A DNA stretch of 64,000 bases from Patescibacteria group bacterium UBA2773 (GCA_002352465.1 DEIN01000012.1:17484-81483), one strand, 5' to 3'; shown: positions 11,125-38,669, numbered from the stretch's first letter. Program-made: numbers and translations. The notes: generated from the letters alone by a model not told the origin.

Positions 11125-13563
11125 CTAACTACTCGCTCTGTTTTTAATTTCGTTCTCTATAATATCTCGATCTCGACCATAAGTATAACGAGAATATTGC
11201 TTGAAAGCCTCTCTTAATTCCGCACTACCCGATTGAGGCGGATAAGTTTTCATATCGAATGGATCAGATGATTCATTGTTAATTAAAAGTTTAGTAAAAC
11301 ACTGAAAGTTATTGATATTAATCAAGTCATTAGCGTCAAATACTGGCGTCAATTGTTTTTGTAAAAAATCAGCATCTTCAGCCCCAACTCTGAAAGCGCT
11401 CATTGAACCAACATTTCCAAAAACCGCCTTGGAAATATCATCAGAAAGCTGCCCAATATATTGATGGGCGATAGTTAAACACAATCGATATTTTCGAGCC
11501 TCCGCCAAAATTTGAGAAATTGAATCCGTGGTAAAATTTTGAAATTCATCAATGTAAAGATAAAAATCGTTCCGCTCATCTTCAGGAATATCAGTTCGAG
11601 ACAAAGCCGCCATCAACAATTTTCCCACAATAATCATCCCCAATAAATGACTATTAATTTCCCCAATTTTCCCTTTGGACAAATTCACCAATAAAATCTT
11701 TTTTTCATCCATTATTTTCCTGAAATCCAAAGTGCTTTCTTGTTGAGCAATAATTGGACGCATCATATCATTGGAAATAAAGCTGGTTAGCTTGGAATTA
11801 ATATAAGGTGAAATATTCTCCAAAGAAGCATCACCCCCGGCTTTTTCCGCTTCTTTTTCCCAAAAATCAACCACCGTTCGATCCTTGCAAAGTTTCAATT
11901 TTTCCTTCCGAAATTCAGCATCTCGAAAAACTCGCGGAATTTCCATTAAAGTCGAACCCGTCTCGGGACTGTCCATAATTAAAAGCAAAGCATTTCGCAT
12001 ATACTGTTCAAACATTGGACCACCAGTTTTGCTTAAATCATAAAGTTTATCAAAAATATTAATGATTTCATTAATCACAAACGTTTTTTGTTCTGGTCGT
12101 TTCTCATCATATTGAAGCATATTAAGACCAAATGGTCGTTCTGTATCCGCTGGATCAAAATAAATCACGTCTTCTGCTCGTTCCTTAGGAATACACTCCA
12201 AAACATGATCAATTAAATCACCGTGCGGATCAACAATACACATTCCCTCCTTGCCAATCGCGTCTTGTTTAGCCATTTCTTCAATAAAACCTGACTTACC
12301 CGTTCCAGTTTGTCCAATAATATAGAGATGTCTTCTTCGAGCATCTCGATCCAACCGAATTTCTGTTTTTGTCCCTCTGAAATCACTGAAACCCAATTTA
12401 AGCCCTTTTTTAGGAATATCAATTGGAGGCGGAGCTGATTTAGAACGCAACCAATTCAACTTTGGTGTTTCAGTCGTAGAAATTGGAAAATGAAAAACAC
12501 TAGCCAATTCTTCCACATCCAAAGTAATCTTTCGAGAAGGCATAAAATATCGAAAAATAAAATTAAAGGCTATTTTTTTGGCGTTTTTGCTCTTATCTCG
12601 AACTGTCACTAACTTATTCAAATTAACATCCTCAAATTGAGTAAAAGAATTTTCCAATTGACTTAAAATTTCTTCCGCACGCTGTTCAGTTTGAGCTGAA
12701 GCCATAAGCCTAATATTAACGTCAAATCTAGTTTTATTAATTTTATTTTCAATTTGTTTAATAACGTCATTCTCTTCTGGTGTCAAACTGACCAGTTCTT
12801 CTTCTTTTTTTTTATTCCCTGTCAAAATTCCACCAACTAAATCACCAAAGACTCCCTTGCTAGCCTCACTCAACCGCTTTCCTTTTTGCATTTCTCGCGT
12901 TATTTTTTCCCCTCGACGTTTAAGCGAACTATCAGTTGATTTTCTAAAAACCACCTGAAAACAGGCTCCCTCTTCAACATTTTCTAATTTAGAAAATGTA
13001 TTAGCAATATTATGTAAAGGATCTGATTCTAAATGTTGATAAGTTTTAATTGGAAAAATATGTTCCTTTTTTAATCGAACAAAACTACCCTTGGTCACTC
13101 CTTCTGGGCGAAAAATTGTATAATCCTCTACTCTTTCAATAAACGCGCTCGGATAAAAACTATGAATTTGTTTTTCCACCAGTTCTTTGATTTGTCTTGG
13201 CATTGAAACATAGAAAGAAATTTGTTCATTGTCTGAGGGAACTCCCATTTCCATTGTTATTTGAGGTGTTCCATAAAAAAAATCCATAATAAAATTTCTT
13301 TTTATCTTGGTTTCAGAAAAAGTCGCTAATAATTGTTCCATTACCGAAATTTCCTCTTTCTCACTCTGCGTTCTTTTCTCAGCATCTAAGTTCTCAGCTT
13401 TTTTCGGTTTTACTACTCGAACAATGTCCAAAGTTGAATTTAAAGATCGACTAATTCGAATTTTAGCTAATAAAAAAGTTTCTAGCATAAACCAACCGGC
13501 GCAAAAAATTGCTATGCCACCAATCAAAATCATTAAAACAAGAATTATGGTCGTTGTTTCCAT
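11125..13563 (-). CDS. Membrane-anchored VirD4/TraD(TrwB)-like P-loop ATPase (putative type IV coupling protein / VirB4-VirD4 superfamily)
   Basis: N-terminal TM helix; Walker A GQTGTGKSG; family motif IVDPHGDL (cf. DPKGE/D in TraG/VirD4/TrwB); Walker B YIDEFQNF; 812 aa. Confidence 0.5.
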   Translation of the reverse strand: METTTIILVLMILIGGIAIFCAGWFMLETFLLAKIRISRSLNSTLDIVRVVKPKKAENLDAEKRTQSEKEEISVMEQLLATFSETKIKRNFIMDFFYGTPQITMEMGVPSDNEQISFYVSMPRQIKELVEKQIHSFYPSAFIERVEDYTIFRPEGVTKGSFVRLKKEHIFPIKTYQHLESDPLHNIANTFSKLENVEEGACFQVVFRKSTDSSLKRRGEKITREMQKGKRLSEASKGVFGDLVGGILTGNKKKEEELVSLTPEENDVIKQIENKINKTRFDVNIRLMASAQTEQRAEEILSQLENSFTQFEDVNLNKLVTVRDKSKNAKKIAFNFIFRYFMPSRKITLDVEELASVFHFPISTTETPKLNWLRSKSAPPPIDIPKKGLKLGFSDFRGTKTEIRLDRDARRRHLYIIGQTGTGKSGFIEEMAKQDAIGKEGMCIVDPHGDLIDHVLECIPKERAEDVIYFDPADTERPFGLNMLQYDEKRPEQKTFVINEIINIFDKLYDLSKTGGPMFEQYMRNALLLIMDSPETGSTLMEIPRVFRDAEFRKEKLKLCKDRTVVDFWEKEAEKAGGDASLENISPYINSKLTSFISNDMMRPIIAQQESTLDFRKIMDEKKILLVNLSKGKIGEINSHLLGMIIVGKLLMAALSRTDIPEDERNDFYLYIDEFQNFTTDSISQILAEARKYRLCLTIAHQYIGQLSDDISKAVFGNVGSMSAFRVGAEDADFLQKQLTPVFDANDLININNFQCFTKLLINNESSDPFDMKTYPPQSGSAELREAFKQYSRYTYGRDRDIIENEIKNRASS

Positions 13564-14023: not shown

Positions 14024-14031
14024 ATTAATAA

Positions 14032-22377: not shown

Positions 22378-23157
22378 ATGCAAATTTCAATTATCTTAGT
22401 CAATTTTAAAAGTCAAATTTTCCTCAAGAACTGCTTAAGATCAGTTAGTCAAAAACTCAAAAAAACTGCTTTGACTAAAAATTTTGAAGTTATTATTGTT
22501 AATAATGAACTAAAACCTCTAAAATTAAGGTTTTCTTTTGATTTAAAAATAAAAATTATCGAAAATCGAAAAAACCTAGGATTTGGAAATGCTTGTAATA
22601 TTGGGGCAAAAAACGCCAAAGGAGAATATCTTTTTTTTCTAAATCCCGATACCGAGCTTTTAATTACTAATTTTTCTTCTATTATAGAAAAATTTAAAAA
22701 AAATTCTCAACTAGGAATAATTGGAACTCAGATAATAGACAAAAACAGAAAAGCCTCTCAACCCTGGACTTGTGGTAAAAAAACTTCTTTTTTAAAAATT
22801 TTATTTAAAAATTCTATTAATCAACCCTGGAATAAAAAATTTCCAGTAGTAGTTGACTGGGTTTCTGGAACTTCTTTTTTTATTAGAAAAAAAGATTTTA
22901 AACAGCTTGGAGGTTTTGACGAAAAATTTTTTATGTATTTTGAAGATCAAGATTTATGCCTTAGAATTAAACAATTAAATAAACATTGTTTGTTTTATCC
23001 CTATTTTTCAGTCTTACATCACGATGGCAAAAGTTGGCCCAATAATGATCAAAAAAAACTTCACTACTATCAATCTCAAGATTATTTTTTCAAAAAACAT
23101 TTCGGTCGATTGAATCAATTAGCATTGCTTTTCAGTAAAAAATTATTAAACAAATGA
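22378..23157 (+). CDS. Family 2 glycosyltransferase
   Basis: GT2 hallmarks: ISIILVNFKS..., IIVNN, NPDTEL (DxD-like), FFIRKKDF; 259 aa. Confidence 0.7.
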   Translation: MQISIILVNFKSQIFLKNCLRSVSQKLKKTALTKNFEVIIVNNELKPLKLRFSFDLKIKIIENRKNLGFGNACNIGAKNAKGEYLFFLNPDTELLITNFSSIIEKFKKNSQLGIIGTQIIDKNRKASQPWTCGKKTSFLKILFKNSINQPWNKKFPVVVDWVSGTSFFIRKKDFKQLGGFDEKFFMYFEDQDLCLRIKQLNKHCLFYPYFSVLHHDGKSWPNNDQKKLHYYQSQDYFFKKHFGRLNQLALLFSKKLLNK

Positions 23158-24389: not shown

Positions 24390-25549
24390 TTAAAAAAATA
24401 TTTTCAAAAATCATCTTGCTCCCTTTTTTAATTCCAATAATCTATCGGATTAAATTTCCGATTAAAAACTTTGGGAATATTAATTTATTAGATTTAGTTT
24501 TGTTATTATCAATAGTATTCGGATTAATCTTAATTTATCAAGAAAAAAATTGGCAAAATTTTAAAAAATATCTTTCCACCAACAAATTAATAACAACAAC
24601 TAGTTTCTTTTTATTTTTTGGATTATTTTCTTTAGCTATAAATTTTGAAACTAATGGTCTTGAAAACTTGAGTCTTTTTAAAAGTTATTTTATTTTACCT
24701 ATTTTTTTCGCAATAATTATTAGTTATTTTTTAAAAACAAATAAACTTAGCCACTGGTCATTTTTTTACTGCTATCTCATTTATTCCTCAACTCTCGCCT
24801 TTTTGACTATTGTTTTTCGATTAATCAACCAGCAAACTTACGATGGACGAATTCAATTATTTTTCGATTCACCCAATCAACTAGCCATCGCTCTCTCCTT
24901 AGGAATAATTTCCGGAGCTATTGTTTTTTTTCACAAAAATTCTAAAAAAGGCCTCTTTGTAATCTTACTAATATTATTAACCGCCCTATTATTAACAAAA
25001 TCCGCTGGAGCAACTCTAGCCGTTGTTTTGACTCTTCTTTTTATTTATAGCAAAAAAATCGCCTTAAAATCAAACTTTTTTTTAAAAATTATTATTTTTT
25101 TATCACTATTTTTAATTGGAATATCCTTTTTTCTTTCTCCTTTCTTGACCAAAATTGATTACAATCCATTTTTAAACCGAAATTCTCTAGACTCTCGTTT
25201 AGTAATTCAACTTTCTACTCAAAAAATTATCTCCGCTAATTTTTTAACTGGCATTGGATTAGCTAATTTTCAAACTAAATATCTCGAAAAACAAACCGAT
25301 TTTCCACCCTATCCTCAATGGGCTGTTCCTCATTCTCATAATTTATTCACTCAAATTTGGTTATCTTTCGGTTTCTTCGGTTTTTTAATTTGGCTTTATT
25401 TATTGTTCCAAAAAACAACTTTCTCTAAAAATCTTCCGAGCAAAATAACTCTTTATTTTCTTTTATATTTTTTAATTCACGGCCTAGTCGACGTTCCCAT
25501 CTGGAGCAATGACCAAGCCTTATTTTTCTGGTTTATATTTTTTCTATAG
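24386..25549 (+). CDS. O-antigen ligase/polymerase-like (Wzy_C-type) polytopic membrane protein, paralog of the preceding gene
   Basis: At least 10 TM helices; AVPHSHNLFTQIW motif typical of the Wzy_C/WaaL/PglL family. Confidence 0.6.
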   Translation: MIKKIFSKIILLPFLIPIIYRIKFPIKNFGNINLLDLVLLLSIVFGLILIYQEKNWQNFKKYLSTNKLITTTSFFLFFGLFSLAINFETNGLENLSLFKSYFILPIFFAIIISYFLKTNKLSHWSFFYCYLIYSSTLAFLTIVFRLINQQTYDGRIQLFFDSPNQLAIALSLGIISGAIVFFHKNSKKGLFVILLILLTALLLTKSAGATLAVVLTLLFIYSKKIALKSNFFLKIIIFLSLFLIGISFFLSPFLTKIDYNPFLNRNSLDSRLVIQLSTQKIISANFLTGIGLANFQTKYLEKQTDFPPYPQWAVPHSHNLFTQIWLSFGFFGFLIWLYLLFQKTTFSKNLPSKITLYFLLYFLIHGLVDVPIWSNDQALFFWFIFFL

Positions 25550-26656
25550 AGGCCTTTTAATCAAACTTCCTGAAATTTTATCAATAAAAACTAGTTTTTC
25601 TTTGGTTAATATTAAATTAAAAGCATCTACTGGAGGATATTTTTCCAAATCAGTAAATATTTTTTCTTTTTTATTTTCATTCAAATCAATTTTCCAAAAA
25701 ATATCTCGAGAAACAAATTTATCTGAATACCAATCTTCTAATTTAAATTCCTTAAGCACCTCGCTAGTCAAAACCGCACAATACAAAAAGTCAGCCTCTT
25801 CTGACCAAACACATTTTTGAGCCACACTTGGCACGCCAAGTTCAAACTGCTTTTTTTGTAATAAATCATAATATCCTAGTTGAACTCTTTTCGACGCAAC
25901 CGAATGATCATAAAAAGAAAATAAAATTTTATCTCCATCCGGTGACCATAAAACATCAATAATATCTTTTTCGACTATTTTATTATTTGCCTTTTGATCA
26001 ATTAAATTAGTTAAAAAAATGCCACTCTGTTCCTTGTTGGCTTGCCTAGAAAAATAAGCAACTAAATCTTCTTGCGGATTAACCGCTAAATCAAGATTCT
26101 CTCTTTTTATTTTTCTAACCAATCTCCAATTTTTACCTTCCAAATCTGAAATGTTTAATTCAAAAAATCCGTTCTCGGAAAATAAATAAATCAGACCATC
26201 TCCCAAGGAATTAAACCTAACTTGCTTTATCTTTTTTTCTAACTTAATATTTTGTTTTTTTTCAAGATTATAAACATTAAAATCATCCCCAGCTCTGACT
26301 AAACAAAAACTCCCAGTTTTTGAAAATTGAGCCGTCTTAAAATCATTAAAAGGATAAGAACCTAAATTATTCTTATAAGAACCATTTAAGTCTGTTTCTA
26401 AAAAATTATTTTGATTATAATAAATAATTTTATTAGCTTCTTTTCTAAAAGCCATTTTAATTTCCCCCCTTGCAATAATATCTTCTATTAGTAATTTTTC
26501 TTTCTCTGCTTTATCAACTAAAACTTCCCTTGGAGAATCATTTTTAATTACAATTTTTTCTGATTTCAAAAATAAATCAATTAATTGAATTTTAAAATAC
26601 CACAAAAAAAAGATAGCACAAAGAATACCTGAAATTATTCCAATTTTTTTAATCAT
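25544..26656 (-). CDS. N-terminally anchored periplasmic/extracellular beta-propeller-like protein (TolB/WD40-like, hypothetical)
   Basis: Single N-terminal TM helix; repeated beta-strand-rich segments (DVLWSPDGDKILFSF); last gene of the T4SS-like block. Confidence 0.35.
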   Translation of the reverse strand: MIKKIGIISGILCAIFFLWYFKIQLIDLFLKSEKIVIKNDSPREVLVDKAEKEKLLIEDIIARGEIKMAFRKEANKIIYYNQNNFLETDLNGSYKNNLGSYPFNDFKTAQFSKTGSFCLVRAGDDFNVYNLEKKQNIKLEKKIKQVRFNSLGDGLIYLFSENGFFELNISDLEGKNWRLVRKIKRENLDLAVNPQEDLVAYFSRQANKEQSGIFLTNLIDQKANNKIVEKDIIDVLWSPDGDKILFSFYDHSVASKRVQLGYYDLLQKKQFELGVPSVAQKCVWSEEADFLYCAVLTSEVLKEFKLEDWYSDKFVSRDIFWKIDLNENKKEKIFTDLEKYPPVDAFNLILTKEKLVFIDKISGSLIKRPL

Positions 26657-29501
26657 TTCTTTTTAAATTAATTTCCCGACTAAACCAATAATTAAAACCA
26701 AAAATAAAAAACCAGAAAAGAATAAAAACAATCGCAGTTCTTATTATAAAAACAAAATATTCGGGAGCGTTTGTCAAAGTTGAAGCCATAAACCTTTGGA
26801 TTGAATTACCTTTAACCACAACTCCCATTGAATCAATGTTAGTTTTCTTAATTGTAATAATTTTTTTACTTTCTAAATTTTTAAAATCTTTAACATTCCA
26901 ATTATCACTTAAAACAATTTGTTCTTCTATTGAAAATTCCTTAATAACCTCTACTAATAAATTAATTGTCTCACCTTCTTTTCCTGTTACTTTAAATTCA
27001 ATATTTTGACCATTTAAGGCTATTCCATAATCACTATTAGCACTAATGAATTCAGTATCGACTTTTTGACCATTTATGAACCAATTTAAAGAAATATTAT
27101 TTTGCTCTAAGTTATTATTTAAATAGCTTGGCACAAAATCTGCTTTAAAAGAGATAATTTCCCCAATTTTTCCAACAAAAACACTATCAGACTGACTACC
27201 AACAGAAGAACCGTCGTCCACTACCCAAGGCCAAGCCTTATTATAATCATTACTAACAATTCTCGCCATTGGTTCAACTACCGAAAGTAATCTCTCGCTA
27301 GTCACTTCTCCTCCTTCTTTCTTTTTAACTTTTGAAGAAACCCTTTGCAACTCAATTCCACTGTTTGACATTAGTAAATAAACAGTCTCTCCTAAATCAC
27401 AACCACCATTTCGAAAAGAGCAAATATTTGATCCTGATAAAGGAGCCATTATTTTTTGGCCATTTAATTCCCAAGAATAAGCTTCCGCTTTAGTTATTCC
27501 ATTTAAATCAACTTCAACATCTGATTGAACTGCAATTATTTGACCTGGATAAACTGGACAAATCTGACTATAAACCCCGCTCACACAAATTTCGTCCGAA
27601 GCTGGATCAAAACCATATTCTCCAGTAGCTTGCTGAGAAACTTTAAAAAATCTAATCGCATTATCGTTAACCACCACTGGAATATCCACACTAGAAATTC
27701 CAACCATTGAGTCATTTTTACTTTTTCTAGTTTTCAAAAAAACTTTTAAATAAAAATTATCAGAAGCCCCTTTTTTTATTAAAAAATTATCATCCAATTT
27801 AAACCTTATACTACTAATCCCAATCCCTTCGGCATATGAATTAGACTCAATTCTTTCAGCGCATTTTCCTAAAATATCTCCATCCCCGCAACTTAAAGGG
27901 GTAATCCTATTGTCAAGATTCGAAGTACAGGTGTCTAATTCTCCGTTTCCACAATAATAAATGTCCCAATCATAATAAATAAAATCATCTGCTATTCCAC
28001 TTTGAACAAAATTAGCATTAACTGTAATATAATCTGAATAATCATTGTTATCAACATTAAACTGAGGCGCTAAAGGAGTAAAATTTAATTTACTTTCCAA
28101 TAAACTTACTCCCTGCTCAAAAACATTTTTACTCGCCAAGTAAGTAAAACCATAATCAGAATTTCTATCGCATTCATCCTTTTTAGCTAAATCTTTTTTG
28201 CTTCCACCTTCAACTTCTTCTTTATCACAAGAATCTAAACCAGCCCAAAGAATTTTATAATAAGGGTTTAATGCTGTTTCTCTTTCAATGCCAACGACTT
28301 CTTCGGTCACCGGATAAGAAACACTTCCAGTAGAATTGGTTTCCGATGTAGAATCAGTACTAATACTGCCAGTACTATAAGCACCCTCAGTTCCATCATC
28401 ATTCACACTAACACCCCCATTCAAGCTAGCACTCCCGCCACTAGTCACAGTATCTGCAGTTTCTGATAAAACACCACTGGTATTTATAGATTGGCTTGTA
28501 ATGGAAGTACTAGCATTACCTTCACCTTCATTAATAACTACCAAGGAAGTTCCTTCTATTACAACCCCTACTCGATCGCCTGGGTTAAAAGTCCAAGTAA
28601 ATTGAGTTTGTCCCAAACCAGCTAAATCCTCTTCATCTTTAAAACCATCTCCATCAGTATCAGAACTATTGGGATTCAATCTCCAACAAGCCTCTTCATT
28701 AGTAGTAAATTCACCATCTCCCACTTCATGCCCACTCTTACATTCTATTATTACATTAGGATTAGCTGGATTCTCAAATGTTTCCCCCTTATTAGCTTCA
28801 GCAAATTTATGTTCGCATTCAATAATTAAATCTCCGCCCGGATGAGTAAGCTCATACTCTTCTGGGTCAGAAACCCCAAAATTATGTCTGTAACATCTAG
28901 AAATTTTATCAGTATCAACTATTTGTTTAGCCACGGGAGTAAGATAATGTTCAGATTCATAATCACCCTCTCCTCTTGGGATACCCCTTCGTCCACCCAC
29001 ACCATCATCCCCACCAAAAGAAGCATCATAGCCATCTTTGTCTGGATCAACATTACTATCAGAATAATCTATTTCGAACAAGGCTGGATCAAAATCTCCT
29101 CGAGCCACGATTCCCATTGCTCTTCTCTTTGCATTTTCCATTGCTTCGTCATCCTTTAAATCATCATCTGCTCGAAAAAGAAACCAGGTATAATACAAAT
29201 CATCACTAGCGTTTTTAAAATATTTAGGCATTGCAGTAGCCACCACTTTCTCCCCCCTTTTAGGAGCAGTTTTATCAAAAAATACTTCGGTTGTCGGATA
29301 ATTCGATTTTACTTGAGCTTTTCTTAAAAAATCCTTATCAAAACCATATTGATTTTCCACTTTATTCATAACTTCCTCAATTGACGGAACCTTAATACTA
29401 CTACCACCGAAAGCCTGAACACCTCCAACTAGATTCCAAAAAAGAAGATTTAAGATTATAAATGAATATAAAATTCTTGTTTTTATGGTATATTTTTTCA
29501 T
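26649..29501 (-). CDS. Large (950 aa) cell-surface protein: signal peptide, Asp-rich Ca-binding-like motifs, Ser/Thr-rich linker, C-terminal TM anchor
   Basis: N-terminal signal peptide; DTDGDGFKDEED thrombospondin-type-3-like motif; about 90-aa S/T/G-rich low-complexity stretch; C-terminal hydrophobic anchor followed by a basic tail. Confidence 0.5.
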   Translation of the reverse strand: MKKYTIKTRILYSFIILNLLFWNLVGGVQAFGGSSIKVPSIEEVMNKVENQYGFDKDFLRKAQVKSNYPTTEVFFDKTAPKRGEKVVATAMPKYFKNASDDLYYTWFLFRADDDLKDDEAMENAKRRAMGIVARGDFDPALFEIDYSDSNVDPDKDGYDASFGGDDGVGGRRGIPRGEGDYESEHYLTPVAKQIVDTDKISRCYRHNFGVSDPEEYELTHPGGDLIIECEHKFAEANKGETFENPANPNVIIECKSGHEVGDGEFTTNEEACWRLNPNSSDTDGDGFKDEEDLAGLGQTQFTWTFNPGDRVGVVIEGTSLVVINEGEGNASTSITSQSINTSGVLSETADTVTSGGSASLNGGVSVNDDGTEGAYSTGSISTDSTSETNSTGSVSYPVTEEVVGIERETALNPYYKILWAGLDSCDKEEVEGGSKKDLAKKDECDRNSDYGFTYLASKNVFEQGVSLLESKLNFTPLAPQFNVDNNDYSDYITVNANFVQSGIADDFIYYDWDIYYCGNGELDTCTSNLDNRITPLSCGDGDILGKCAERIESNSYAEGIGISSIRFKLDDNFLIKKGASDNFYLKVFLKTRKSKNDSMVGISSVDIPVVVNDNAIRFFKVSQQATGEYGFDPASDEICVSGVYSQICPVYPGQIIAVQSDVEVDLNGITKAEAYSWELNGQKIMAPLSGSNICSFRNGGCDLGETVYLLMSNSGIELQRVSSKVKKKEGGEVTSERLLSVVEPMARIVSNDYNKAWPWVVDDGSSVGSQSDSVFVGKIGEIISFKADFVPSYLNNNLEQNNISLNWFINGQKVDTEFISANSDYGIALNGQNIEFKVTGKEGETINLLVEVIKEFSIEEQIVLSDNWNVKDFKNLESKKIITIKKTNIDSMGVVVKGNSIQRFMASTLTNAPEYFVFIIRTAIVFILFWFFIFGFNYWFSREINLKRND

Positions 29502-29509
29502 AAAAATAA

Positions 29510-30178
29510 TTAAAGTTTAATATTTTGAATTTTATATAAAATTACTCCATCTAAAAGTAAAATTAAAATCCAACGAGTAAAAAAGGAATACCAAATTGAT
29601 TTTGTTTGTAGATAAAACCAACCTAAAAAAAGAGCTAGTATGTAATTAAATAAAATAAATTGCCAATTGAATATTTCAAAAAATAATATTTCGAAACCGA
29701 CAAATAAACTCGCCTGAACAATTAAAACCGCTTTATTGGATAAAATTATCGCCAATCGGTTGATTAAAAAATTTCGAAAGAAAAATTCTTGAGAAACTAA
29801 AATTATCGGCAATAAGACTAAGTCAATAAAAAATATTGCCCACCAATCATTCAAAAACCAATCCATTCTAGATAAATAATTTAATTTTAAAAATGGTAAA
29901 AAATTTATTGTTAAAACTAAAATCAAAACCAAAATTTGCACCCCCAAAATTTGCAAACAAATCTTACAATTAATTTTTGATAATACTAGCTGATCTTTTA
30001 GTCCTTGTTTTAAAATAATAATCGGAAAAACCAAAAAAAATAGCACATTTAAAAACACTGTTTCCCAAACCCCATCAGTCGTTAAATTATTTAACAAAAA
30101 CCAAAAACCTAAATAGATTGAAAAGACTTCTGTTAAAGTTATTGGCAAATTTTGAATTTTTGATAAATTTTTAAACAT
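29510..30178 (-). CDS. Polytopic membrane protein (hypothetical)
   Basis: About 6 TM helices; contains QEFFFR, reminiscent of the CPBP EExxxR motif, but the protein has no histidine at all. Confidence 0.35.
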   Translation of the reverse strand: MFKNLSKIQNLPITLTEVFSIYLGFWFLLNNLTTDGVWETVFLNVLFFLVFPIIILKQGLKDQLVLSKINCKICLQILGVQILVLILVLTINFLPFLKLNYLSRMDWFLNDWWAIFFIDLVLLPIILVSQEFFFRNFLINRLAIILSNKAVLIVQASLFVGFEILFFEIFNWQFILFNYILALFLGWFYLQTKSIWYSFFTRWILILLLDGVILYKIQNIKL

Positions 30179-30182
30179 TTTT

Positions 30183-30662
30183 TTAATTTAAAGCTTTTTT
30201 AATTTGTTGCATCTTATTATTAACTACTTCAATTTTTTTATAATAACCCTTTTTCAAAAAATAATAGTGCAGTAAAGCCATTATAGTAAAAAGAGGAAGC
30301 CAGCTAAAGCCAAAGCCAAAAACTTCTACTCCATAAAGAATTAATCTTAAAATCCATATTTTAAGTTGCTTCTTTATTTTATTGCGAAAAAAACCTCGCC
30401 CTAGTCCATCAAAAAAATATAATATTTCAAAAACCGCCGCGAAAAAACTACCTATTAAATTTCCGACAACTAGAATTAATCCAAATAAATCAGCCACAAT
30501 GGATAAAATTACTATAAATCGAGAAAGAATTGTGATTTCAGATTTTTCAACCCTCTTGATTGCCTTTAGTATTCCCGTTTCCTTGATAGTTTTTTTATAC
30601 TCCAATTCCCGCTGTCTTTCCAATTCTTGCTGATTTAAATATTCCTGACTAATTTTAACCAT
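30183..30662 (-). CDS. Small membrane protein (hypothetical, T4SS-like cluster)
   Basis: 159 aa, 3 predicted TM helices. Confidence 0.3.
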   Translation of the reverse strand: MVKISQEYLNQQELERQRELEYKKTIKETGILKAIKRVEKSEITILSRFIVILSIVADLFGLILVVGNLIGSFFAAVFEILYFFDGLGRGFFRNKIKKQLKIWILRLILYGVEVFGFGFSWLPLFTIMALLHYYFLKKGYYKKIEVVNNKMQQIKKALN

Positions 30663-30678
30663 CAGTTTTTTAAAAAAA

Positions 30679-32520
30679 TTAAGCCTCCCTTTTTTCCATT
30701 TTCATTCTTTGTGCTGGATTAGTAGTAATAATTTTATCTTCATTATAAGAAGCAACCACTTGAATAGCTGCTCGCTTATTACCAGCAAAAAATATTCCCT
30801 CTCCCACTTGAGTTTCCATTAGAAAATATTTTTCCTTGTCAGTTAAATAAAACGTATCAGCTACTACATCCACCGAAGATTTCGACTGTTTCATTAATAA
30901 CTGAATCGAGGAATTAGAAACAATCGCTTTTCCATGAGAAGACCCTAAAAAATCTGAAATATCTTGAGTAATAGTAGTCAGTCCTCCGTAATACTTTCTA
31001 ATTCGTTTTGCAATTGAAAATAAAAACTTAGCTCCATCTTCATGTTGCATCATCCACCAAGCTTCATCCACCGTAATTAATCTTTTTTTAACATTAAATC
31101 GAACTTCATTCCAAATATATTTTAAAATCAGATACATTGCAATTGGTCGAAGCTCATCTTCAAGATCCCGAATATTAAAAACAATTAATCGATTTTTCAA
31201 AATAATATTAGAAGGCTGATTTAAAAAACCCTTATAAACTCCTTGGGTATATTTTTCAACTCGCATCGCCAAGTTTTCTCCTCCTTGCATATTTTTTAAA
31301 ATCTCATGAAAATCTGTTAATAAAGGCATATTTTTATTTGGTAGTTCCTCTACTGCCGTTTCCTTGGTAATATCTCGAACTAAATAGGTTTCATGAATTG
31401 CTCGAGCTAAAACTGTGTCTTCTTCTGGAGTAATATTTCCTAACATTAACTTAAACAAACCAATCAAATCCACAGTGTTTGATCTTAAGATTTCCTCCAT
31501 ATTTTCTTCAGCATTAGCTTTTAAAGAAAAAGGATTAATATGATGAGAAGAATTCAAAGAAACTGAAATATAGCTTCCTCCGACTGCTTCAGCTAAATAA
31601 CGATATTCATCTTCTGGATCAATAATAATTGAATCTGTTCCCAGCATCAAAGACCGCAGAATTTCTAATTTTATCGTATAACTTTTTCCAGCTCCCGATT
31701 TAGCAAACACTACTGTATTAGCATTCTCCATCGAAAACCGATCAAATAAAATCAAAGAATTATTATGTTTATTAATTCCATACATAATCCCTTGATTAGA
31801 TGTTACATTAGAAGAAATAAAAGGAAAAGCCGTTGAAAGTGGAGCAGTATTAAGATCTGACCCAATCATCAACTTATCCGAACAAAGCGGAAGGCAAGAA
31901 TCAAACCCTTCTTTCATTCTAAATACGGCTTTTTTAGTAAAGATAGACATTGACTCTAAGGACGATTCTAAAATATCAGTATTTTTTTCTAAAACTTCTA
32001 AATCTTTAGCATAGATATTAACATATAGACCAAATTTAAAAACCTTTTCCACTCCTTCTTGTAGCTTGTCTCTTAATTCCTCCACATTGCGATAAGCCAT
32101 CTCTAATTCCGGACTTCGAACCAAGCCCTTCTCACTCTCAATATTAATTTGAGATTGAATTTGAGCTACTTTTTTCTTTAAAGTTTTCAAAACTTTATTC
32201 GTATTAATCGGATGAATGAAAAAAGCAATATCCATTGGTAAATCCAAAGTAATCATTCGATTAGACCAACCAATTGAAAGTATTCGAGGATAAGCTGAAA
32301 CAAAAATCGTCCGACAATAAACCTCTCCGATTTGCAAATAAGCGCTTGATACTCCAAAAGCAGCCGGCGCAATAAAATCCAAAACTCTCGTTAAGCCTTT
32401 TTGATAAACGTCTTCTTTATTTAGAATATCAATCACGCCATAATCCTGAGTTTTATTTTCTGGTTTTTTTGATATCAATTGTTTTTTCTTTTTTTCTTTT
32501 TTTTGAAATAATTTAAACAT
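30679..32520 (-). CDS. VirB4-like type IV secretion ATPase (Gram-positive TraE/PrgJ/TcpF-like)
   Basis: Walker A VVFAKSGAGKSYT, IIIDPEDEY (cf. VirB4 DPKGEY), Walker B LITVDEAWWMM; the N-terminal region resembles conjugative VirB4 proteins (IAPAAF...YCRTIFVSAYPR). Confidence 0.65.
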   Translation of the reverse strand: MFKLFQKKEKKKKQLISKKPENKTQDYGVIDILNKEDVYQKGLTRVLDFIAPAAFGVSSAYLQIGEVYCRTIFVSAYPRILSIGWSNRMITLDLPMDIAFFIHPINTNKVLKTLKKKVAQIQSQINIESEKGLVRSPELEMAYRNVEELRDKLQEGVEKVFKFGLYVNIYAKDLEVLEKNTDILESSLESMSIFTKKAVFRMKEGFDSCLPLCSDKLMIGSDLNTAPLSTAFPFISSNVTSNQGIMYGINKHNNSLILFDRFSMENANTVVFAKSGAGKSYTIKLEILRSLMLGTDSIIIDPEDEYRYLAEAVGGSYISVSLNSSHHINPFSLKANAEENMEEILRSNTVDLIGLFKLMLGNITPEEDTVLARAIHETYLVRDITKETAVEELPNKNMPLLTDFHEILKNMQGGENLAMRVEKYTQGVYKGFLNQPSNIILKNRLIVFNIRDLEDELRPIAMYLILKYIWNEVRFNVKKRLITVDEAWWMMQHEDGAKFLFSIAKRIRKYYGGLTTITQDISDFLGSSHGKAIVSNSSIQLLMKQSKSSVDVVADTFYLTDKEKYFLMETQVGEGIFFAGNKRAAIQVVASYNEDKIITTNPAQRMKMEKREA

Positions 32521-32537
32521 TTAAATTAATTATTTTA

Positions 32538-33197
32538 TTACTTTTCAAGATCAATTGACGAAATATTTTCTAAATTAACATATTCGAATTCAGATGGATT
32601 ATAGGAGTTATAATAAAGTTCGATTAATTCTTCAGTTTTAAGCATTATTCCATTCAAACCCATACCAGACAATGAAGAAGCCACTCTATCCACCCGTTGA
32701 AATAATTGACTCTTGTAAGTCTCAAAACTTTCATTATTTTGATATAAAACCTTTTTTTTATTGGCTACTGAAAATATTTTTTTAAAAACTCCTTGATTTT
32801 TAACTTCTATCATATAAAAGGGGATAACAATATAAAACATTTTAGACATCACATTTGACAAACCAATTAATTCCTCAATAAAATCTACATAATCTTTGAT
32901 TTGATTTTTCAACAAAATATTTTCTTCTAATCGAATCTTCTTTTTTAGTTGATCAACATAAGGATTAATATTAAACCGTCGAGAAGAAACCACAATTTGA
33001 AAACTAAAATCAAAAGTTGTTAAAAACTGTTGAAAATTGTAAATAATTGCTTGCTGTTCCTCTTCTGATTTCAAATCCATATTAATTGCTGTAGTCGCTA
33101 AAACCGCCCTCAAAGAACCGTCTTTCATTACGACTACGTCTTCTTTGATTTCAGCAATCTCCATTTTTTCTTGTAGTGAATTTTCACTCCCATTCAT
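32538..33197 (-). CDS. Hypothetical protein immediately upstream of the VirB4-like gene (possible separately encoded VirB4 N-terminal-like domain)
   Basis: 219 aa; VVMKDGSLRAVLATTAINMDLKSEEEQ...FDFSFQIV pattern is reminiscent of the VirB4/TrbE N-domain; 17-bp gap to the ATPase ORF. Confidence 0.3.
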   Translation of the reverse strand: MNGSENSLQEKMEIAEIKEDVVVMKDGSLRAVLATTAINMDLKSEEEQQAIIYNFQQFLTTFDFSFQIVVSSRRFNINPYVDQLKKKIRLEENILLKNQIKDYVDFIEELIGLSNVMSKMFYIVIPFYMIEVKNQGVFKKIFSVANKKKVLYQNNESFETYKSQLFQRVDRVASSLSGMGLNGIMLKTEELIELYYNSYNPSEFEYVNLENISSIDLEK

Positions 33198-33218
33198 AAT
33201 TTTATTTTTATTTATTGA

Positions 33219-33623
33219 CTATTCATAAATATCTAGAGATTGAATCGCCTTTTTAATCTCATTTGGATTAATTTTCTTTTTATTTTTTTTAACAATAATT
33301 TTTGGTTTTTTATCATCTTCTTCTAAAGGATTATTTTGATAACCTTTGCGCCAAATATAAATTTTGGGCTTAAAAGTGAAAAGAAAAGCGTTTTTGATAA
33401 AAACTGGCAAAGTCTGACCATAAGGTTTAACAAAAAGCACCGCCACTATAAAAATCGAAACAATTACCAGTATAATAATAAAATAAGTTTTTTCAAATAA
33501 AACCCAGGCAATAAAACTAAAAAAGCAACCCAAAGCAACCCAACCTAATTGCTTAGCAGTTAATTGAAACGCTATTTTATCTTCAATCCCAATAAATTGA
33601 GGTACTTCTCTTTGTCGACTCAT
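33219..33623 (-). CDS. Small two-TM membrane protein (candidate VirB3/PrgI-like)
   Basis: 134 aa; a hydrophobic hairpin near the N-terminus; position and size typical of VirB3/PrgI genes; no sequence motif to confirm. Confidence 0.3.
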   Translation of the reverse strand: MSRQREVPQFIGIEDKIAFQLTAKQLGWVALGCFFSFIAWVLFEKTYFIIILVIVSIFIVAVLFVKPYGQTLPVFIKNAFLFTFKPKIYIWRKGYQNNPLEEDDKKPKIIVKKNKKKINPNEIKKAIQSLDIYE

Positions 33624-33625
33624 TT

Positions 33626-34525
33626 TTAAATATAATTATTTAAATCTAAAACATTACTTCTTTTATCTTCCCTTTCATTTTCCTTTTTTTTGAAATTATT
33701 TTTTTTTACCGCCTTAATTTTAAAAGCTGACTTACTATCAACATCATGATAGGGCTTACTTTCAAATTTAGTAATATTAAAATTAGCTTTTGGTTTTTTG
33801 TTCTTTTCTAATAATTTTATTATTTCAAAATCAATTTGCTCAAACAACTTATTATAATAAGTAATTGCATTCCCCTCAAAAGCTTTTAAAATTATTGATA
33901 ACTCCTCTTTTTCTTCTGGATTTAATTGTTGAGCGTTTTTACTATTATACAAGTAATCACTGACATTTAAAATAGTGTTTTTCTGTTGGTCAGTTTTTCT
34001 TAAGCGATAATCAATAATCCAATTTTCAATCCAAGGTGCCTTACCTTCATTTTCTTTAGGAAAAAAAATTAATTGAACTCCAATTTCTTGTTGCCTAATT
34101 TCCGGAAATTTTTCTAAAAGTTCTTTAAAGTTCAAAACCACTAAATCTTCTTTAACTGCTTTAATTCCAATTTTTTTTATGGCTTCAATTAATTGTTTGA
34201 ATTCCACCAAAAAATCAATCGAAACAGTATTACTCAATTGAAATCTTTGGAAAATTTCTTTCTTCAATTGGTCTTCGCTCAGTTCCCCAGCCATAAAATT
34301 CCGAGTCAAAATCGCCACTCCCCCAATTTTCTCTGGAGAACTTAACTGATTTTTTTCCGCCAAAGTTTTTATTAAATTTTCCGTTTTTGTGCTAATCAAA
34401 CCATACCGAACATTCCGCGGTAATTTCTTTTTTTGCTTTTCCCAACGCTCTCGACTGTCTTCTTTTTTTAACAAGTCAACTGCCAAAGTCGGGTTAGCTT
34501 GATTAATTATTTTTAGCTCCTCCAT
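33626..34525 (-). CDS. Cytoplasmic hypothetical protein (T4SS-like cluster)
   Basis: 299 aa, no TM helix. Confidence 0.35.
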   Translation of the reverse strand: MEELKIINQANPTLAVDLLKKEDSRERWEKQKKKLPRNVRYGLISTKTENLIKTLAEKNQLSSPEKIGGVAILTRNFMAGELSEDQLKKEIFQRFQLSNTVSIDFLVEFKQLIEAIKKIGIKAVKEDLVVLNFKELLEKFPEIRQQEIGVQLIFFPKENEGKAPWIENWIIDYRLRKTDQQKNTILNVSDYLYNSKNAQQLNPEEKEELSIILKAFEGNAITYYNKLFEQIDFEIIKLLEKNKKPKANFNITKFESKPYHDVDSKSAFKIKAVKKNNFKKKENEREDKRSNVLDLNNYI

Positions 34526-34549
34526 TTTTTTATTATATCATCTTATAAT

Positions 34550-36637
34550 CTAAATAAATCCAGTTTTTTTCTTTTGTGCTTTAGGGGTTGTTTTTTGATT
34601 TAAATTAGTTGTATCTTTTTGACTTGCTAAAAAACCAGCCTTTATTTTTTTAGATTCAGGCGTTGTTTTTGAATCACTATTATTTTCGTCTTCTCCTAAT
34701 AAAAATTTACCCTTTCCTGTTTTTTCTGCTATTAAAAAATCACGCGCTTCGATATTTTTAATATTTTCAGCAAATTTTCTTCTTTCATTGATTTTTGTAT
34801 TTTGATTTTTTTCAAACAAATACTCTACCACACCAGGTTGTTCATAAAAACTTTTATTTTGATTTTTGATAATTGAACCAAGATTACCTTGAATATTTTT
34901 ATTGAAAATTTCTTTATCAACTCCTGCCATAGCACTAGCTTTATGATATTCCTTGCTTCCTCTTTTTAACCCATCAAAAGAATTATTCCCTTCTTTTATT
35001 TTTTCTTGAATTTTTTGATGTTTTTTATAATCAATAAAAGCCCCTAAATTTTCTCTTTTAGTTTCCCTAGTAATTTGTTCTTGAGCTGCTTTATCATCTT
35101 TTAGGTTCTCCATCGCTTTTTCATATTGATTATTTCCGCTAGCATCAACTCCTAATTTATTATTTTGAGATTTATACAAAGTTGCCGCCAAGTCTCCTTT
35201 TTCAAATAATTTATCCATCTCAACATCTGTAATTGGATCATCTTTCCATTTTTTAAGTTTCTCCTGAGCCTTACCTCTTTCATAACTTCTAGTTGCTGCA
35301 CCACCATCTCTTCCATATTTCTTTTTAGCATTAGCCACTCTTTGAGCTTGAAGATCGTCTCTTCCACTTTTAGTCAATCTTTTTGTTACAAAACTCCCTT
35401 TACCGTCATAATTTTTCACTCCGTGTTTAATTCCTTCTTTTACTGCCTCTCTTTGTTTTTTAAAAGTAGCAACAGAAGCAGCCCCATATCCAAACTTCTT
35501 AGCTGCTCTTCCAGTTTTATTTCCCCAAGCGCTAATTTTAGCACTCCCCGCTCCCAAAATCTTAGTAGCCATATCACTAGAAGTTTTTTTGGCTTGATCA
35601 TAACCATAAAATAATAAATAAATAACCGTAATATAAGGAATAAGCATTGAAAAAAGCTTAACCGCAAAACTTGACAATGCTCCCGAACCGGCTTTTATTT
35701 GTTCTGGGTTCATTGAAGAAAAAGGATCTATTCCCGCCTTCGTTGCTCCCACTAAAGCATCTAATAAAATTATCGCCAACCAGAAAAAAAACAACAAAAT
35801 CGGACCATAAAAACACCAACTCATTAAATTTTTTACCCAATCATCCTTCATTGAACCCAATTTAGTCCCCTCCATTGCAAAACCAAACATTGCCAAGGGT
35901 GATAAAATTATTAAAACCCAAAAAGAAATCATTCTAACAATCAAGCTAATCGCCAAATAAAACAACATTATTGCCATTATTATAGTCATTAAAATCACCA
36001 CTATAAGAATCACAAAATAAGCAAATTTATCACCAAGATTTCCGGGTGAAAGAATGTCATCAAAACTAATTAAATTTTGAAGTTGAGCCGTAAACGCCAT
36101 TTGTTGAATGGCATTAGCAAAAAAATGCATAAAAACTTGAGAAATATCAATCACAAATAAGGTCAAAGGTTTAGAGAAATTTATCAACATCGCCGCTATT
36201 ATCACTCTCATTAAGACCGTCTTGTCTTTAAATTTAGAAACCCCTAAAATTGTACTCAATCCCACTAAAACAATTATTAAAATAAAAAATAAATTAAAAA
36301 AATCCCGCACAAATGACCAAGCAGTGTTAATTCCCTCTTTAGCTACGGGTGAAAAAAAAACACCCGAAAACATCTCTGGTGAAATCATCGTATCCAACAA
36401 CCACATAGAACCTGCTAGTAACATTAAAGCTAACTTAAAAAATCCATATAAAATAGCATTAACCCCGGTTAATAAAGTATTACTAAAAAAACCACCTTCA
36501 CCACTACCACTTTTAAGTGTTTCTACAACATCACTTTGCGCTAAACAAAAATCACCAACTAAAAAACACCCTAAAAAAATTACTCCTAGGGAAAACAACC
36601 ATTTTTTGTTAATGTTTTTCTTTTTAAAAGCTACCAT
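34550..36637 (-). CDS. Polytopic membrane protein with signal peptide and long basic C-terminal tail (VirB6/TrbL-like)
   Basis: 695 aa; N-terminal signal, about 6-7 TM helices in the first 350 aa, then a Lys-rich disordered tail. Confidence 0.4.
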   Translation of the reverse strand: MVAFKKKNINKKWLFSLGVIFLGCFLVGDFCLAQSDVVETLKSGSGEGGFFSNTLLTGVNAILYGFFKLALMLLAGSMWLLDTMISPEMFSGVFFSPVAKEGINTAWSFVRDFFNLFFILIIVLVGLSTILGVSKFKDKTVLMRVIIAAMLINFSKPLTLFVIDISQVFMHFFANAIQQMAFTAQLQNLISFDDILSPGNLGDKFAYFVILIVVILMTIIMAIMLFYLAISLIVRMISFWVLIILSPLAMFGFAMEGTKLGSMKDDWVKNLMSWCFYGPILLFFFWLAIILLDALVGATKAGIDPFSSMNPEQIKAGSGALSSFAVKLFSMLIPYITVIYLLFYGYDQAKKTSSDMATKILGAGSAKISAWGNKTGRAAKKFGYGAASVATFKKQREAVKEGIKHGVKNYDGKGSFVTKRLTKSGRDDLQAQRVANAKKKYGRDGGAATRSYERGKAQEKLKKWKDDPITDVEMDKLFEKGDLAATLYKSQNNKLGVDASGNNQYEKAMENLKDDKAAQEQITRETKRENLGAFIDYKKHQKIQEKIKEGNNSFDGLKRGSKEYHKASAMAGVDKEIFNKNIQGNLGSIIKNQNKSFYEQPGVVEYLFEKNQNTKINERRKFAENIKNIEARDFLIAEKTGKGKFLLGEDENNSDSKTTPESKKIKAGFLASQKDTTNLNQKTTPKAQKKKTGFI

Positions 36638-36677
36638 TAAAGTTTATTTTTTATTTTTTTTATCAGAAAACTAAAAA

Positions 36678-37589
36678 TTATTTAGAAGTTCCAAATCCAC
36701 CATAAATCTTTTTTTGTAAACTATCCATTCCTTTATTATCATTAATAGTTCTTAGTTGGTTATCAATTGGTTTAGTCACATCAGCCACTCCTGTTTCTAT
36801 TGTCTTAGATAACATACCCGCTGCTACTGTCCCTATAATTTCCGCGGGTGATCGAGCTTGATTAATCATATCCATAAATAAAGTTTCTGTCTTAGTTGTA
36901 ATTCCAGCAATAACACTTCCTGGTAAATTAACTAGATTATTCTCAGAATCTTTTTTATTAATAAATCCCTGACCTACAATCGCTTCCACTTCTGCTTTTT
37001 TTTGAGCTTTAATCTCCTCTTCCTCTAAAATCATTTGGGCTCGCATTTGAACTCCAAAAGGATTATTCATATCATTAGTAGCCATCGCCATTACCGCTTG
37101 GCTTCCTCCTCCTTTGTTTTGATCAAAAACATTATCTATTCCGCCTTGAACATATTGATCAATCGTAGAAAGTTCACTTTCAGGTGATAAAAGTGCATCT
37201 TCAATATCATCATACATTGCCGCTGTATTATTATCTACTCCATCGCTTAAAGTTTTAAAAAAATCCCTAGTCTGTAGAGAAGCTTCCCTGTGAGCTGCTC
37301 CATAAATAAAATCATCATAATCCGTAATCACCAAAGGGTTTCCTTTTCCGGTTAATAAAACCCTTACCCGATCTCGAAGCAAATTATTAGCTTGTTGTTT
37401 TAAACTTTTTAACATTGCATCTAGAAAGGCCTGTCTAACTTCCACCCAAGCTTCATGCATAAGAATGGCTGGAAATTCACCCCAATAAGCTTGAGCTGGT
37501 TTATTAGAACTTAATACCCCTCCCAAACAAAACATAATTATTAAAACCAAGCTAAATACTTTTGTTTTTATTTTGTTTTTAATCAACAC
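36678..37589 (-). CDS. Secreted protein (hypothetical, T4SS-like cluster)
   Basis: 303 aa with N-terminal signal/anchor; no recognisable family. Confidence 0.35.
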   Translation of the reverse strand: MLIKNKIKTKVFSLVLIIMFCLGGVLSSNKPAQAYWGEFPAILMHEAWVEVRQAFLDAMLKSLKQQANNLLRDRVRVLLTGKGNPLVITDYDDFIYGAAHREASLQTRDFFKTLSDGVDNNTAAMYDDIEDALLSPESELSTIDQYVQGGIDNVFDQNKGGGSQAVMAMATNDMNNPFGVQMRAQMILEEEEIKAQKKAEVEAIVGQGFINKKDSENNLVNLPGSVIAGITTKTETLFMDMINQARSPAEIIGTVAAGMLSKTIETGVADVTKPIDNQLRTINDNKGMDSLQKKIYGGFGTSK

Positions 37590-37607
37590 TTTTATTTTTT
37601 TTATTTT

Positions 37608-38669
37608 TTAAGAAATGTTATCCAACATATCTTCACTAAAAACAGTAATTTCAAGTTCATCAACAAGACTTTCTATTTGATTTTTTACTTCTTCTCCTTC
37701 ATTTACAGCTGCTTGTAACTTACCAACATACAAAGCTATTGTCATTGGATCTTGTTGATCAATCAATTTCTCTTCATTAATGTTTTCAACTAAATATTTA
37801 ATAATCGACAACACTTTAATTTGAATATCTTTGGCTCTATAGGGAGTTTCTATCTCTAAACATTCTTCATATGTTTTTTCGGCATTTCTTTTTAAATCTG
37901 AGAGTTGTTCTATTTGTCCTGTTTGAACATTTTCATTTATTTCATTTATGTAAGCTACTGCTAATTGAGGAAGCAACTCTTGTTCTTCTATGGCGAAAGG
38001 TCTATTAGTGGCCATAATATAAAAAAGCTGAGTTAAATATTTTTCAACTTGTTCTTTTTCTTCTTTTTTTACTTTTTTCTCACTTCCGGTCACTTCTTCT
38101 AAAAGAATAATGTCATCTTCTGAGACTAAAGTCATTTCTTTTGCAAACTCTGAATCTTTATTGGTTTGATTAAGTATTTTCTCTAAATCCCCACTGGTTA
38201 ACGAGGTATTATTTAATATTTCTCTTTCTTCTTTGTTATTATATTTTTCTGGATTAGAATAATAATCATTCAACAATCCTAATTCATTGTTTTTTTCGCT
38301 TTGTAATTTTTCAAAAAAATCATCAGTTAAATTAGGTGTTTCTTCTTCGGTTTCAATTTGATTATTATCTTCCTCTGTTTTAAAAACAAGTTTATCACCA
38401 GGAGCTGGTTTCAAGGGATCAAAACCACTTTCAACTTCTATTCCGTCTCGATATCCATCTCCATCACTGTCTGCATTATTCACATCAGTTCCATACATAT
38501 ATTCCTCTTCATCTGTTAATTCATCTCCATCTCGATCGTGAAAAATATCAGATTTACTAAAATTAATATTACTTAAAAAAGACCACCAAAAAACCAAAAG
38601 GATCCCCAGAAAAACTAGGTTTTTATTTTCAATTAAACTAAAAAATTTTTTTTTGTTTATTTTTTTCAT
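37608..38669 (-). CDS. Secreted acidic protein with Asp-rich Ca-binding-like repeats (first gene of T4SS-like block)
   Basis: N-terminal TM/signal; DRDGDELTDEEE and DSDGDGYRDGIE repeats (thrombospondin-type-3/dockerin-like DxDxDG). Confidence 0.4.
   Translation of the reverse strand: MKKINKKKFFSLIENKNLVFLGILLVFWWSFLSNINFSKSDIFHDRDGDELTDEEEYMYGTDVNNADSDGDGYRDGIEVESGFDPLKPAPGDKLVFKTEEDNNQIETEEETPNLTDDFFEKLQSEKNNELGLLNDYYSNPEKYNNKEEREILNNTSLTSGDLEKILNQTNKDSEFAKEMTLVSEDDIILLEEVTGSEKKVKKEEKEQVEKYLTQLFYIMATNRPFAIEEQELLPQLAVAYINEINENVQTGQIEQLSDLKRNAEKTYEECLEIETPYRAKDIQIKVLSIIKYLVENINEEKLIDQQDPMTIALYVGKLQAAVNEGEEVKNQIESLVDELEITVFSEDMLDNIS

Follow-up and report, generated by a model that had tools for sequence, protein, structure and literature searches.

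What does an eleven-gene block beside the replication genes of a Patescibacteria chromosome encode: a type IV secretion system (T4SS), a piece of a conjugative element, or a secretion core embedded among unrelated envelope genes? The block occupies positions 25544-38669 of a 64,000-nucleotide stretch of DNA from Patescibacteria group bacterium UBA2773 (GCA_002352465.1 DEIN01000012.1:17484-81483), referred to here as the window, of which positions 24,390 to 38,669 are shown. An earlier description made from the sequence alone, called here the original prediction, saw in it a minus-strand gene set resembling a T4SS or surface appendage of monoderm (MPF-FATA-like) type. All eleven open reading frames (ORFs) lie exactly at the coordinates given then and are co-directional; they are not chance ORFs, as related genomes preserve both their homologues and their arrangement. 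They are numbered from g11, the first gene, to g01, the last. The evidence points, with a probability of roughly 85%, to a chromosomal, origin-proximal T4SS of the Patescibacteria type in Candidatus Moraniibacteriota, derived from the MPF-FATA class and carrying no recognizable DNA-processing genes.

The translocon core

Homology or fold supports the VirB6, VirB3 and split VirB4 parts of a cytoplasmic-membrane translocon, encoded by five adjacent genes (g09 to g05) with g08 as the fifth. Only these five of the eleven show T4SS homology or T4SS-wide conservation. The locus comparison draws on the 80 listed VirB4 relatives (L-numbered loci, 49-93% identity to g05), across which the order VirB6-like gene, g08, PrgI, TrsD, VirB4 is conserved.

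The product of g05 had been called a VirB4-like ATPase, and its translation does carry the motifs quoted for it, namely Walker A GAGKS, IIIDPEDEY and Walker B DEAWW. In family scans, which covered Pfam and NCBIfam for window ORFs of at least 90 amino acids (aa), it falls within the VirB4 family of T4SSs. The NCBIfam model "VirB4-like conjugal transfer ATPase, CD1110 family" ranks highest (1e-109, 367.9 bits; curated cut-off 325), followed by VirB4 of a mycoplasma integrative conjugative element (ICE; 1.7e-86), F-type TraC (4.6e-58) and VirB4_CagE (8.5e-38), while Pfam yields matches to the TraG P-loop domain (1.6e-30) and CagE_TrbE_VirB (1.5e-7). It is this order of model scores, rather than a phylogeny, that places the system in the MPF-FATA class. 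With the 17 transfer proteins of pCF10 (NC_006827) as reference, g05 aligns to residues 215-772 of PrgJ at 26% identity (E 6e-39), the single match in pairwise phmmer comparisons of all block proteins with the 17. Identity to its relatives (49-93%, versus 26% to the enterococcal prototype PrgJ) serves as a proxy for membership of the Patescibacteria VirB4 clade.

Immediately upstream lies g06, whose TrsD-like character the original prediction missed. Two NCBIfam models match it, though neither reaches its curated cut-off: TrsD (1.7e-8) and, over model residues 107-281, the mycoplasma ICE VirB4 (3.3e-8). It corresponds to the detached N-terminal piece known as TrsD in published work. A gene of this type directly precedes virB4 in 78 of the 80 loci, and the combined length of g06 and g05, 832 aa, compares with the 796 aa of PrgJ. 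The VirB4 motor thus appears to be split over two polypeptides, a TrsD-like N-terminal domain and an ATPase. Directly upstream of the TrsD-like gene stands g07, a neighborhood retained in 73 of the 80 loci. Its product had been predicted as a small protein with two transmembrane (TM) segments in the VirB3/PrgI position; TM prediction gives the expected hairpin, and the match to Pfam PrgI (6.8e-10, 39.8 bits) exceeds the gathering cut-off of 27.

The polytopic product of g09 was originally likened to VirB6/TrbL, with a long basic tail. Polytopy and relationship to VirB6 both stand: an N-terminal hydrophobic segment is followed by several more in the stretch 55-346, the TM domain extends over residues ~50-380, and the predicted structure has a VirB6 fold, although sequence identity to TrwI/VirB6 of R388 is only 11%. 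The tail needs revision, as the basic C-terminal part is predicted to form a folded helical-repeat domain (~420-650; predicted local distance difference test mostly 84-95) rather than a disordered extension.

Between the VirB6-like and PrgI genes lies g08, a member of a 299-aa family collected by iterated hidden Markov model searches on domain-restricted alignments. Of the 80 loci, 58 contain a member, and among those with enough upstream sequence the count is 55 of 65; two paralogues are sometimes present. The family almost always sits between the VirB6 and VirB3 genes and comprises 3,386 representatives of 50%-identity clusters at E<=1e-3. Its conserved motifs are P-x-I-x-N-W-[IL]-K-D-[YF] and Y-L-x-S-x-N. 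No Pfam family and no relative among PDB sequences was found, and BLASTP gives no relationship between g08 and the C-terminal domain of the VirB6-like protein. In a Spechtbacteria metagenome-assembled genome (MAG; locus L014), the N-terminal subdomain of the family is fused to the C-terminus of a 957-aa VirB6-like ORF (6014-8887, plus strand) located just before PrgI. Such a fusion hints, in the Rosetta-stone sense, that the two proteins associate physically. The g08 protein is a candidate cytoplasmic subunit or adaptor. A bolder proposal, to which we give somewhat less than even odds, is that the family constitutes an unrecognized, near-universal cytoplasmic core subunit of Patescibacteria T4SSs that docks on the C-terminus of VirB6 and, together with a TolB-like propeller, defines a Patescibacteria-specific architecture unlike that of every structurally characterized T4SS.

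The relatives themselves bear out the guess that the genome belongs to an ultra-small episymbiont. Candidatus Moraniibacteriota MAGs are closest by VirB4 (76-93% identity), followed at 49-59% by MAGs labelled Doudna-, Falkow-, Magasanik-, Specht-, Portnoy- and Berkelbacteria, Saccharibacteria and "Patescibacteria group". Among the 80 listed relatives, MAGs labelled as Patescibacteria, from several lineages, form the majority; many of the remaining records have generic titles or bear the names of other phyla. Titles such as "uncultured Bdellovibrionales", "Gammaproteobacteria" and "Candidatus Saccharibacteria" stand on many third-party-annotation MAGs with a Patescibacteria-type locus (L001, L005, L007, L044, L047, L049 and others). 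These look like taxonomic mislabels of candidate phyla radiation (CPR) genomes.

Coordinates and characteristics of the block genes and of other features of the window
Feature	Position	Strand	Description
g11	37608..38669	-	353 aa, pI 4.3, 22% D+E; N-terminal membrane anchor; first gene of block
g10	36678..37589	-	303 aa, acidic (pI 5.1); N-terminal signal/anchor
g09	34550..36637	-	695 aa, extended VirB6-like polytopic membrane protein (predicted structure)
g08	33626..34525	-	299 aa, basic, soluble, no TM segment; between VirB6-like and PrgI genes
g07	33219..33623	-	134 aa, two-TM PrgI/VirB3-like protein
g06	32538..33197	-	219 aa, soluble, TrsD/TraD-like; equivalent to N-terminal domain of full-length VirB4
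g05	30679..32520	-	613 aa, VirB4 ATPase; middle and C-terminal P-loop domains
g04	30183..30662	-	159 aa, basic small membrane protein; charged N-terminus, 3-4 hydrophobic helices
g03	29510..30178	-	222 aa, polytopic CPBP/Rce1-like (CAAX protease family) membrane protein
g02	26649..29501	-	950 aa, acidic (pI 4.5) surface protein; signal peptide, 14 Cys, Ser/Thr-rich linker, C-terminal TM anchor
g01	25544..26656	-	370 aa, TolB-like (PD40) beta-propeller; N-terminal anchor; last gene of block
VirD4-like ATPase	11125..13563	-	812 aa, divergent coupling-protein-like; N-terminal TM helix, large pre-ATPase domain; motifs GQTGTGKS, DEFQNF
dnaN	40701-41843
dnaA	42061-43464		3.4 kb upstream of block
Probable replication origin	42061-44753		dnaA, 1.29-kb intergenic region upstream of dnaA, skew turn
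UbiA-family gene	38782-40410	-	prenyltransferase, between dciA and block; extra polytopic N-terminal extension of ~270 residues
GT2 and two Wzy_C genes	22378-25549	+	glycosyltransferase and tandem O-antigen-ligase-like genes, converging on block
Four genes upstream of VirD4-like gene	13592-18775	-	Glu-rich proteins of 143 aa, 358 aa (DUF5663) and 873 aa (central hydrophobic hairpins), then a 328-aa protein
Rubrerythrin and desulfoferrodoxin genes	7268-8286	+	adjacent
ORFs of 391, 320, 378 and 190 aa	50771-52918, 59375-60511, 53439-54011	-	no significant Pfam/NCBIfam family

Surface proteins and other accessory genes

Three proteins of the block, g11, g10 and g02, had been described as secreted or anchored and as carrying Asp-rich calcium-binding-like motifs or Ser/Thr-rich linkers. 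This holds for g11 and g02, the latter having the linker as well, while g10 is anchored and acidic and has neither feature. For g11, the match to Pfam TSP3_bac (3.4e-7) exceeds the cut-off and identifies a thrombospondin-type-3 calcium-binding repeat; a cross-match in profile searches shows a domain common to g11 and g02. In 10 of 50 informative loci, a g11-like gene is found upstream of the VirB6-like one. In g02, the calcium-type motif DxDGDGxxDE (DTDGDGFKDEED) is invariant in eight orthologues, the invariant columns being D281, D283, G284, D285, G286, D289 and E290. None of eight g02 family members matches Pfam or a PDB sequence. Full-length orthologues are found in the six closest loci, with two paralogues in L025. 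This protein is a candidate adhesin or envelope-spanning component. The g10 protein has no match in Pfam, NCBIfam or PDB sequences and is a lineage-restricted accessory protein: its homologues occur in seven loci, each between a g11-like and a VirB6-like gene, and reach 575-689 aa in L024 and L031-L033.

The two genes that follow virB4 are order-specific and confined to the six closest loci. There, g04 stands directly after virB4 each time; it has no Pfam or NCBIfam match, and its layout in TM prediction is not VirB2-like. The g03 protein, absent from the original prediction, matches Pfam Rce1-like above cut-off (2.1e-7). Intramembrane proteases of the CPBP/Rce1 family are characterized by the catalytic motifs EExxxR, FxxxH and HxxxB. 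The g03 protein retains a QEFFFR motif and contains no histidine at all, and the same is true of five of its six orthologues. Because the canonical catalytic His motifs are absent, g03 is probably non-catalytic, suggesting a non-proteolytic role.

The block ends with g01, predicted from the outset to be a membrane-anchored beta-propeller. Its family profile finds TolB structures in the PDB at 3.7e-18, and 7 of 26 family members match Pfam PD40. The gene lies downstream of virB4, in the same direction, in 26 of the 58 loci with at least 5 kb of downstream sequence. Scanned directly, five block proteins (g09, g08, g10, g02 and g04) match no Pfam or NCBIfam family, and for four of these, family-profile or single-sequence searches of the PDB returned no match.

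How these parts might work together can be sketched as follows. The extended VirB6-like g09 would act as channel or scaffold, driven by a VirB4 motor composed of the g06 N-terminal domain and the g05 ATPase, with g08 docking on the cytoplasmic face of both VirB6 and VirB4. The anchored, acidic g11, g10 and g02 and the g01 propeller may form the wall-spanning or host-contacting part, replacing the adhesins or VirB2-like pili of other lineages. Such a machine would move protein or nucleic-acid cargo between epibiont and host cell without conjugation.

Genomic setting and missing components

The original prediction described the genes as tightly packed, with gaps of 0-20 bp and two overlaps. Close, co-directional packing is indeed found, 98.9% of the block being coding, although the gaps measure 2-40 bp, the largest separating g10 from g09 and others reaching 24 and 21 bp. 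The sole internal overlap is one of 8 bp between g02 and g01. The second overlap that had been counted is a 6-bp convergent one, between the end of g01 and a plus-strand Wzy-like gene (24386-25549).

The block lies directly downstream of dnaA-dnaN-dciA and a UbiA-family gene and is co-directional with all four, an origin-proximal location as described for the T4SS of Paceibacteria. The sign of the GC skew changes at ~42-44 kb of the window. The Moraniibacteriota relatives L001-L007 keep the eleven-gene order together with dnaA-dnaN-dciA-UbiA and the convergent Wzy, Wzy and GT2 genes, and this synteny with the origin region holds in relatives down to 76% VirB4 identity. GC content is 0.305 in the block and 0.311 outside. 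The remaining window is occupied by housekeeping genes (IleRS, PNPase, LspA, RNase Y, NusB, HU, BipA, DEAD helicase, CCA-adding enzyme, tRNAs), and several of its ORFs match no Pfam or NCBIfam family.

Further features surround the block. The probable replication origin includes a perfect DnaA box at 43548, and the window holds 30 DnaA-box-like sites where 16 are expected, a modest enrichment. The UbiA-family gene is syntenic in L002, L005 and L006. A promoter and terminator scan (110 sites versus 96 expected) is uninformative in AT-rich DNA of this kind. The adjacent rubrerythrin and desulfoferrodoxin genes form an oxidative-stress pair typical of anaerobes.

Most classical partners of a conjugation machine went unrecognized, as the original prediction had noted. 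Neither relaxase nor integrase is matched by Pfam or NCBIfam among the window ORFs scanned, nor was an excisionase or mobile-element replication gene detected among them. Likewise, lytic transglycosylase/VirB1, VirB11, pilin and prepilin peptidase have no family match among the scanned ORFs of block or window. The search for a VirB2-like pilin returned no TrbC/VirB2 or T4SS_pilin match and no suitable small membrane ORF in the block or in the intergenic gaps of the window. The outer-membrane core (VirB7, VirB9, VirB10) has no family match in block or window, as expected for MPF-FATA, and a VirB8-like protein of NTF2-like fold has no sequence match in any ORF scanned. Monoderm VirB8-like proteins are usually recognizable only by structure.

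A possible partner of uncertain membership, which the original prediction did not mention, is the divergent VirD4-like ATPase, which matches Pfam TrwB_AAD_bind (1.5e-7) and T4SS-DNA_transf (4.1e-6) and, far below cut-off, NCBIfam CD1115 VirD4-like (2.7e-8). Four co-directional genes lie directly upstream of it, in a region of strongly negative GC and AT skew, and DUF5663 is the only family matched there.

Competing explanations and published systems

Several observations weigh against reading the whole block as a T4SS. VirB8-, VirB1- and VirB2-like components went undetected by sequence. The VirD4-like gene lies 12 kb from the block, and none of the 80 loci has a homologue of it closer than 10 kb to virB4. 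The TrsD match of g06 falls far below the NCBIfam cut-off, and BLASTP of g06 against the N-terminus of PrgJ is not significant. As g09 has no direct Pfam or NCBIfam match, and comparison of its family profile with that of pCF10 PrgH is weak (8% probability), its assignment to VirB6 rests on predicted structure. Finally, of the six accessory genes, g02, g03, g04 and g10 have a narrow distribution, in close relatives or a few loci, and only operon structure argues for their participation.

This last point could mean that the five-gene core, from g09 to g05, is the entire secretion system and that the other six are unrelated envelope genes sharing an operon near the origin. None of g02, g03, g04 and g10 has a T4SS family match, the neighboring genes (GT2, two Wzy_C, UbiA) are themselves envelope-related, and g01 may belong with the Wzy-like genes instead, since its pairing with them is kept in the distant loci L019, L024, L027, L031, L032 and L035. 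However, the tight spacing continues throughout the block, the 26 loci in which g01 follows virB4 come from several classes, and the order g11-g10-VirB6 recurs in a second lineage (L024, L027, L031-L033). Monoderm T4SS operons, moreover, normally include lineage-specific surface proteins (PMC12102498). A core-only system is on balance unlikely, though it retains a real share of the probability. Slightly less likely is a machine working inward, a Ced-like or ComB-like importer of host DNA, RNA or other macromolecules that feeds an organism unable to make nucleotides. In favor of this, a relaxase went undetected, PMC12102498 proposes uptake of DNA or other macromolecules, and a 2026 preprint ties the phylum's monophyletic VirB4 to macromolecule transfer in an RNA-feeding parasite. 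Weak resemblances to Ced proteins also exist, VirB4 matching CedB (6.7e-11) and the VirD4-like protein CedD (1.4e-3). These scores, however, fall far short of those for conjugative families (CD1110, 1e-109), no Ced-specific membrane components were found, and sequence alone gives no transport direction. The model of Wang et al., for its part, depicts delivery of DNA or protein, with export of proteins or some other capacity suggested (PMC10633639).

VirB4, PrgI, TrsD and VirB6 are conjugation-derived proteins, and with a VirD4-like gene in the same window they could also be read as the mating-pair-formation module of an integrated conjugative element, or its degraded remnant. Such an element would be marked by a relaxase, a coupling protein linked to the other genes, and an integrase flanked by att sites. 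Among window ORFs of at least 90 aa, no relaxase or integrase family was matched, and the sole coupling-protein-like gene is divergent and lies 12 kb away. The flanks carry dnaA, dnaN, dciA, RNase Y, NusB, HU, IleRS and PNPase, the GC content equals that of the surroundings, and, according to the published tree, VirB4 has been inherited for the most part vertically within classes (PMC12102498). This explanation is very improbable and was rejected because integrase and relaxase matches are lacking among the ORFs scanned and the origin-proximal synteny is conserved. The evidence supports the original view of the block as a secretion apparatus rather than a classical conjugation module, and the original prediction holds apart from minor corrections.

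The preferred reading, a Patescibacteria-type T4SS, agrees closely with a published class. Quinonero-Coronel et al. (2025) reported that the VirB4 proteins of Patescibacteria form a monophyletic clade inside MPF-FATA, with TrsD, PrgI/VirB3 and VirB6 near virB4, coupling proteins mostly unlinked and relaxases almost absent; in Paceibacteria the locus lies near dnaA/dnaN and VirB1 is linked to virB4, and VirB2-like pilin genes near virB4 are frequent, though not universal, in Patescibacteria (PMC12102498). The present locus has the same adjoining TrsD-, PrgI/VirB3- and VirB6-like genes, is chromosomal and next to dnaA/dnaN, and likewise lacks a relaxase and an outer-membrane core, its coupling-protein homologue being located elsewhere. 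It differs in having no recognizable VirB2-like pilin gene or array (block and small intergenic ORFs), in the absence of a detectable VirB1-like hydrolase, unlike Paceibacteria, and in its order-specific surface proteins g02 and g10, His-less CPBP-like protein and small membrane protein. In the searched main text and two supplements of PMC12102498, the 299-aa family, TolB, propeller, CAAX/Rce1, Wzy, TSP3 and UbiA receive no mention; unnamed "CPR profiles" there could include the 299-aa family.

Among MPF-FATA monoderm systems (pCF10 prgD-pcfC, pGO1 trs, CTn2 CD1110), the likeness extends to VirB4, a PrgI-type VirB3, a TrsD as in pGO1 and anchored surface proteins within the operon, and a VirB6-like polytopic gene lies directly upstream of VirB3 as in prgH-prgI-prgJ of pCF10. 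Unlike these systems, the block has a split VirB4 whose N-terminal domain appears as a separate protein. None of the PrgK/TrsG-type wall hydrolase, the PrgL/TraM VirB8-like protein or LPXTG adhesins was recognized here by sequence, nor were relaxase or accessory DNA-processing genes or a linked coupling protein detected, and the locus is not on a mobile element. The g09 protein also departs from the "extended VirB6" of Gram-negative T4SSs, as its C-terminal basic helical-repeat domain has no identified relative and no VirB5 partner was detected.

The original prediction had added that such systems are essential for host attachment in episymbiotic bacteria, which the literature words differently. 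What was found essential is the T4SS cluster SEML1_0006-0019 of Southlakia epibionticum, which has no recognizable coupling or relaxase proteins, and its role there is in epibiotic growth (Wang et al. 2023, PMC10633639), as a 2025 review repeats (PMC12857230), whereas host attachment is credited to type IV pili (PMC10633639, PMC12857230).

The locus is thus a further example of a class of systems published in 2023-2025, not a new system, and leaves the current picture of Patescibacteria T4SSs unchanged; the 299-aa family and the recurrent beta-propeller are incremental points. These T4SSs are thought to be central to the way in which ultra-small bacteria live on other cells, and proved essential in the single species tested. 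The present locus provides a compact, pilin-less example from Moraniibacteriota, in which an unannotated polytopic protein is VirB6-like by predicted structure. The 299-aa family and the TolB-like propeller emerge as conserved, unnamed partners and concrete targets for structural and genetic work.

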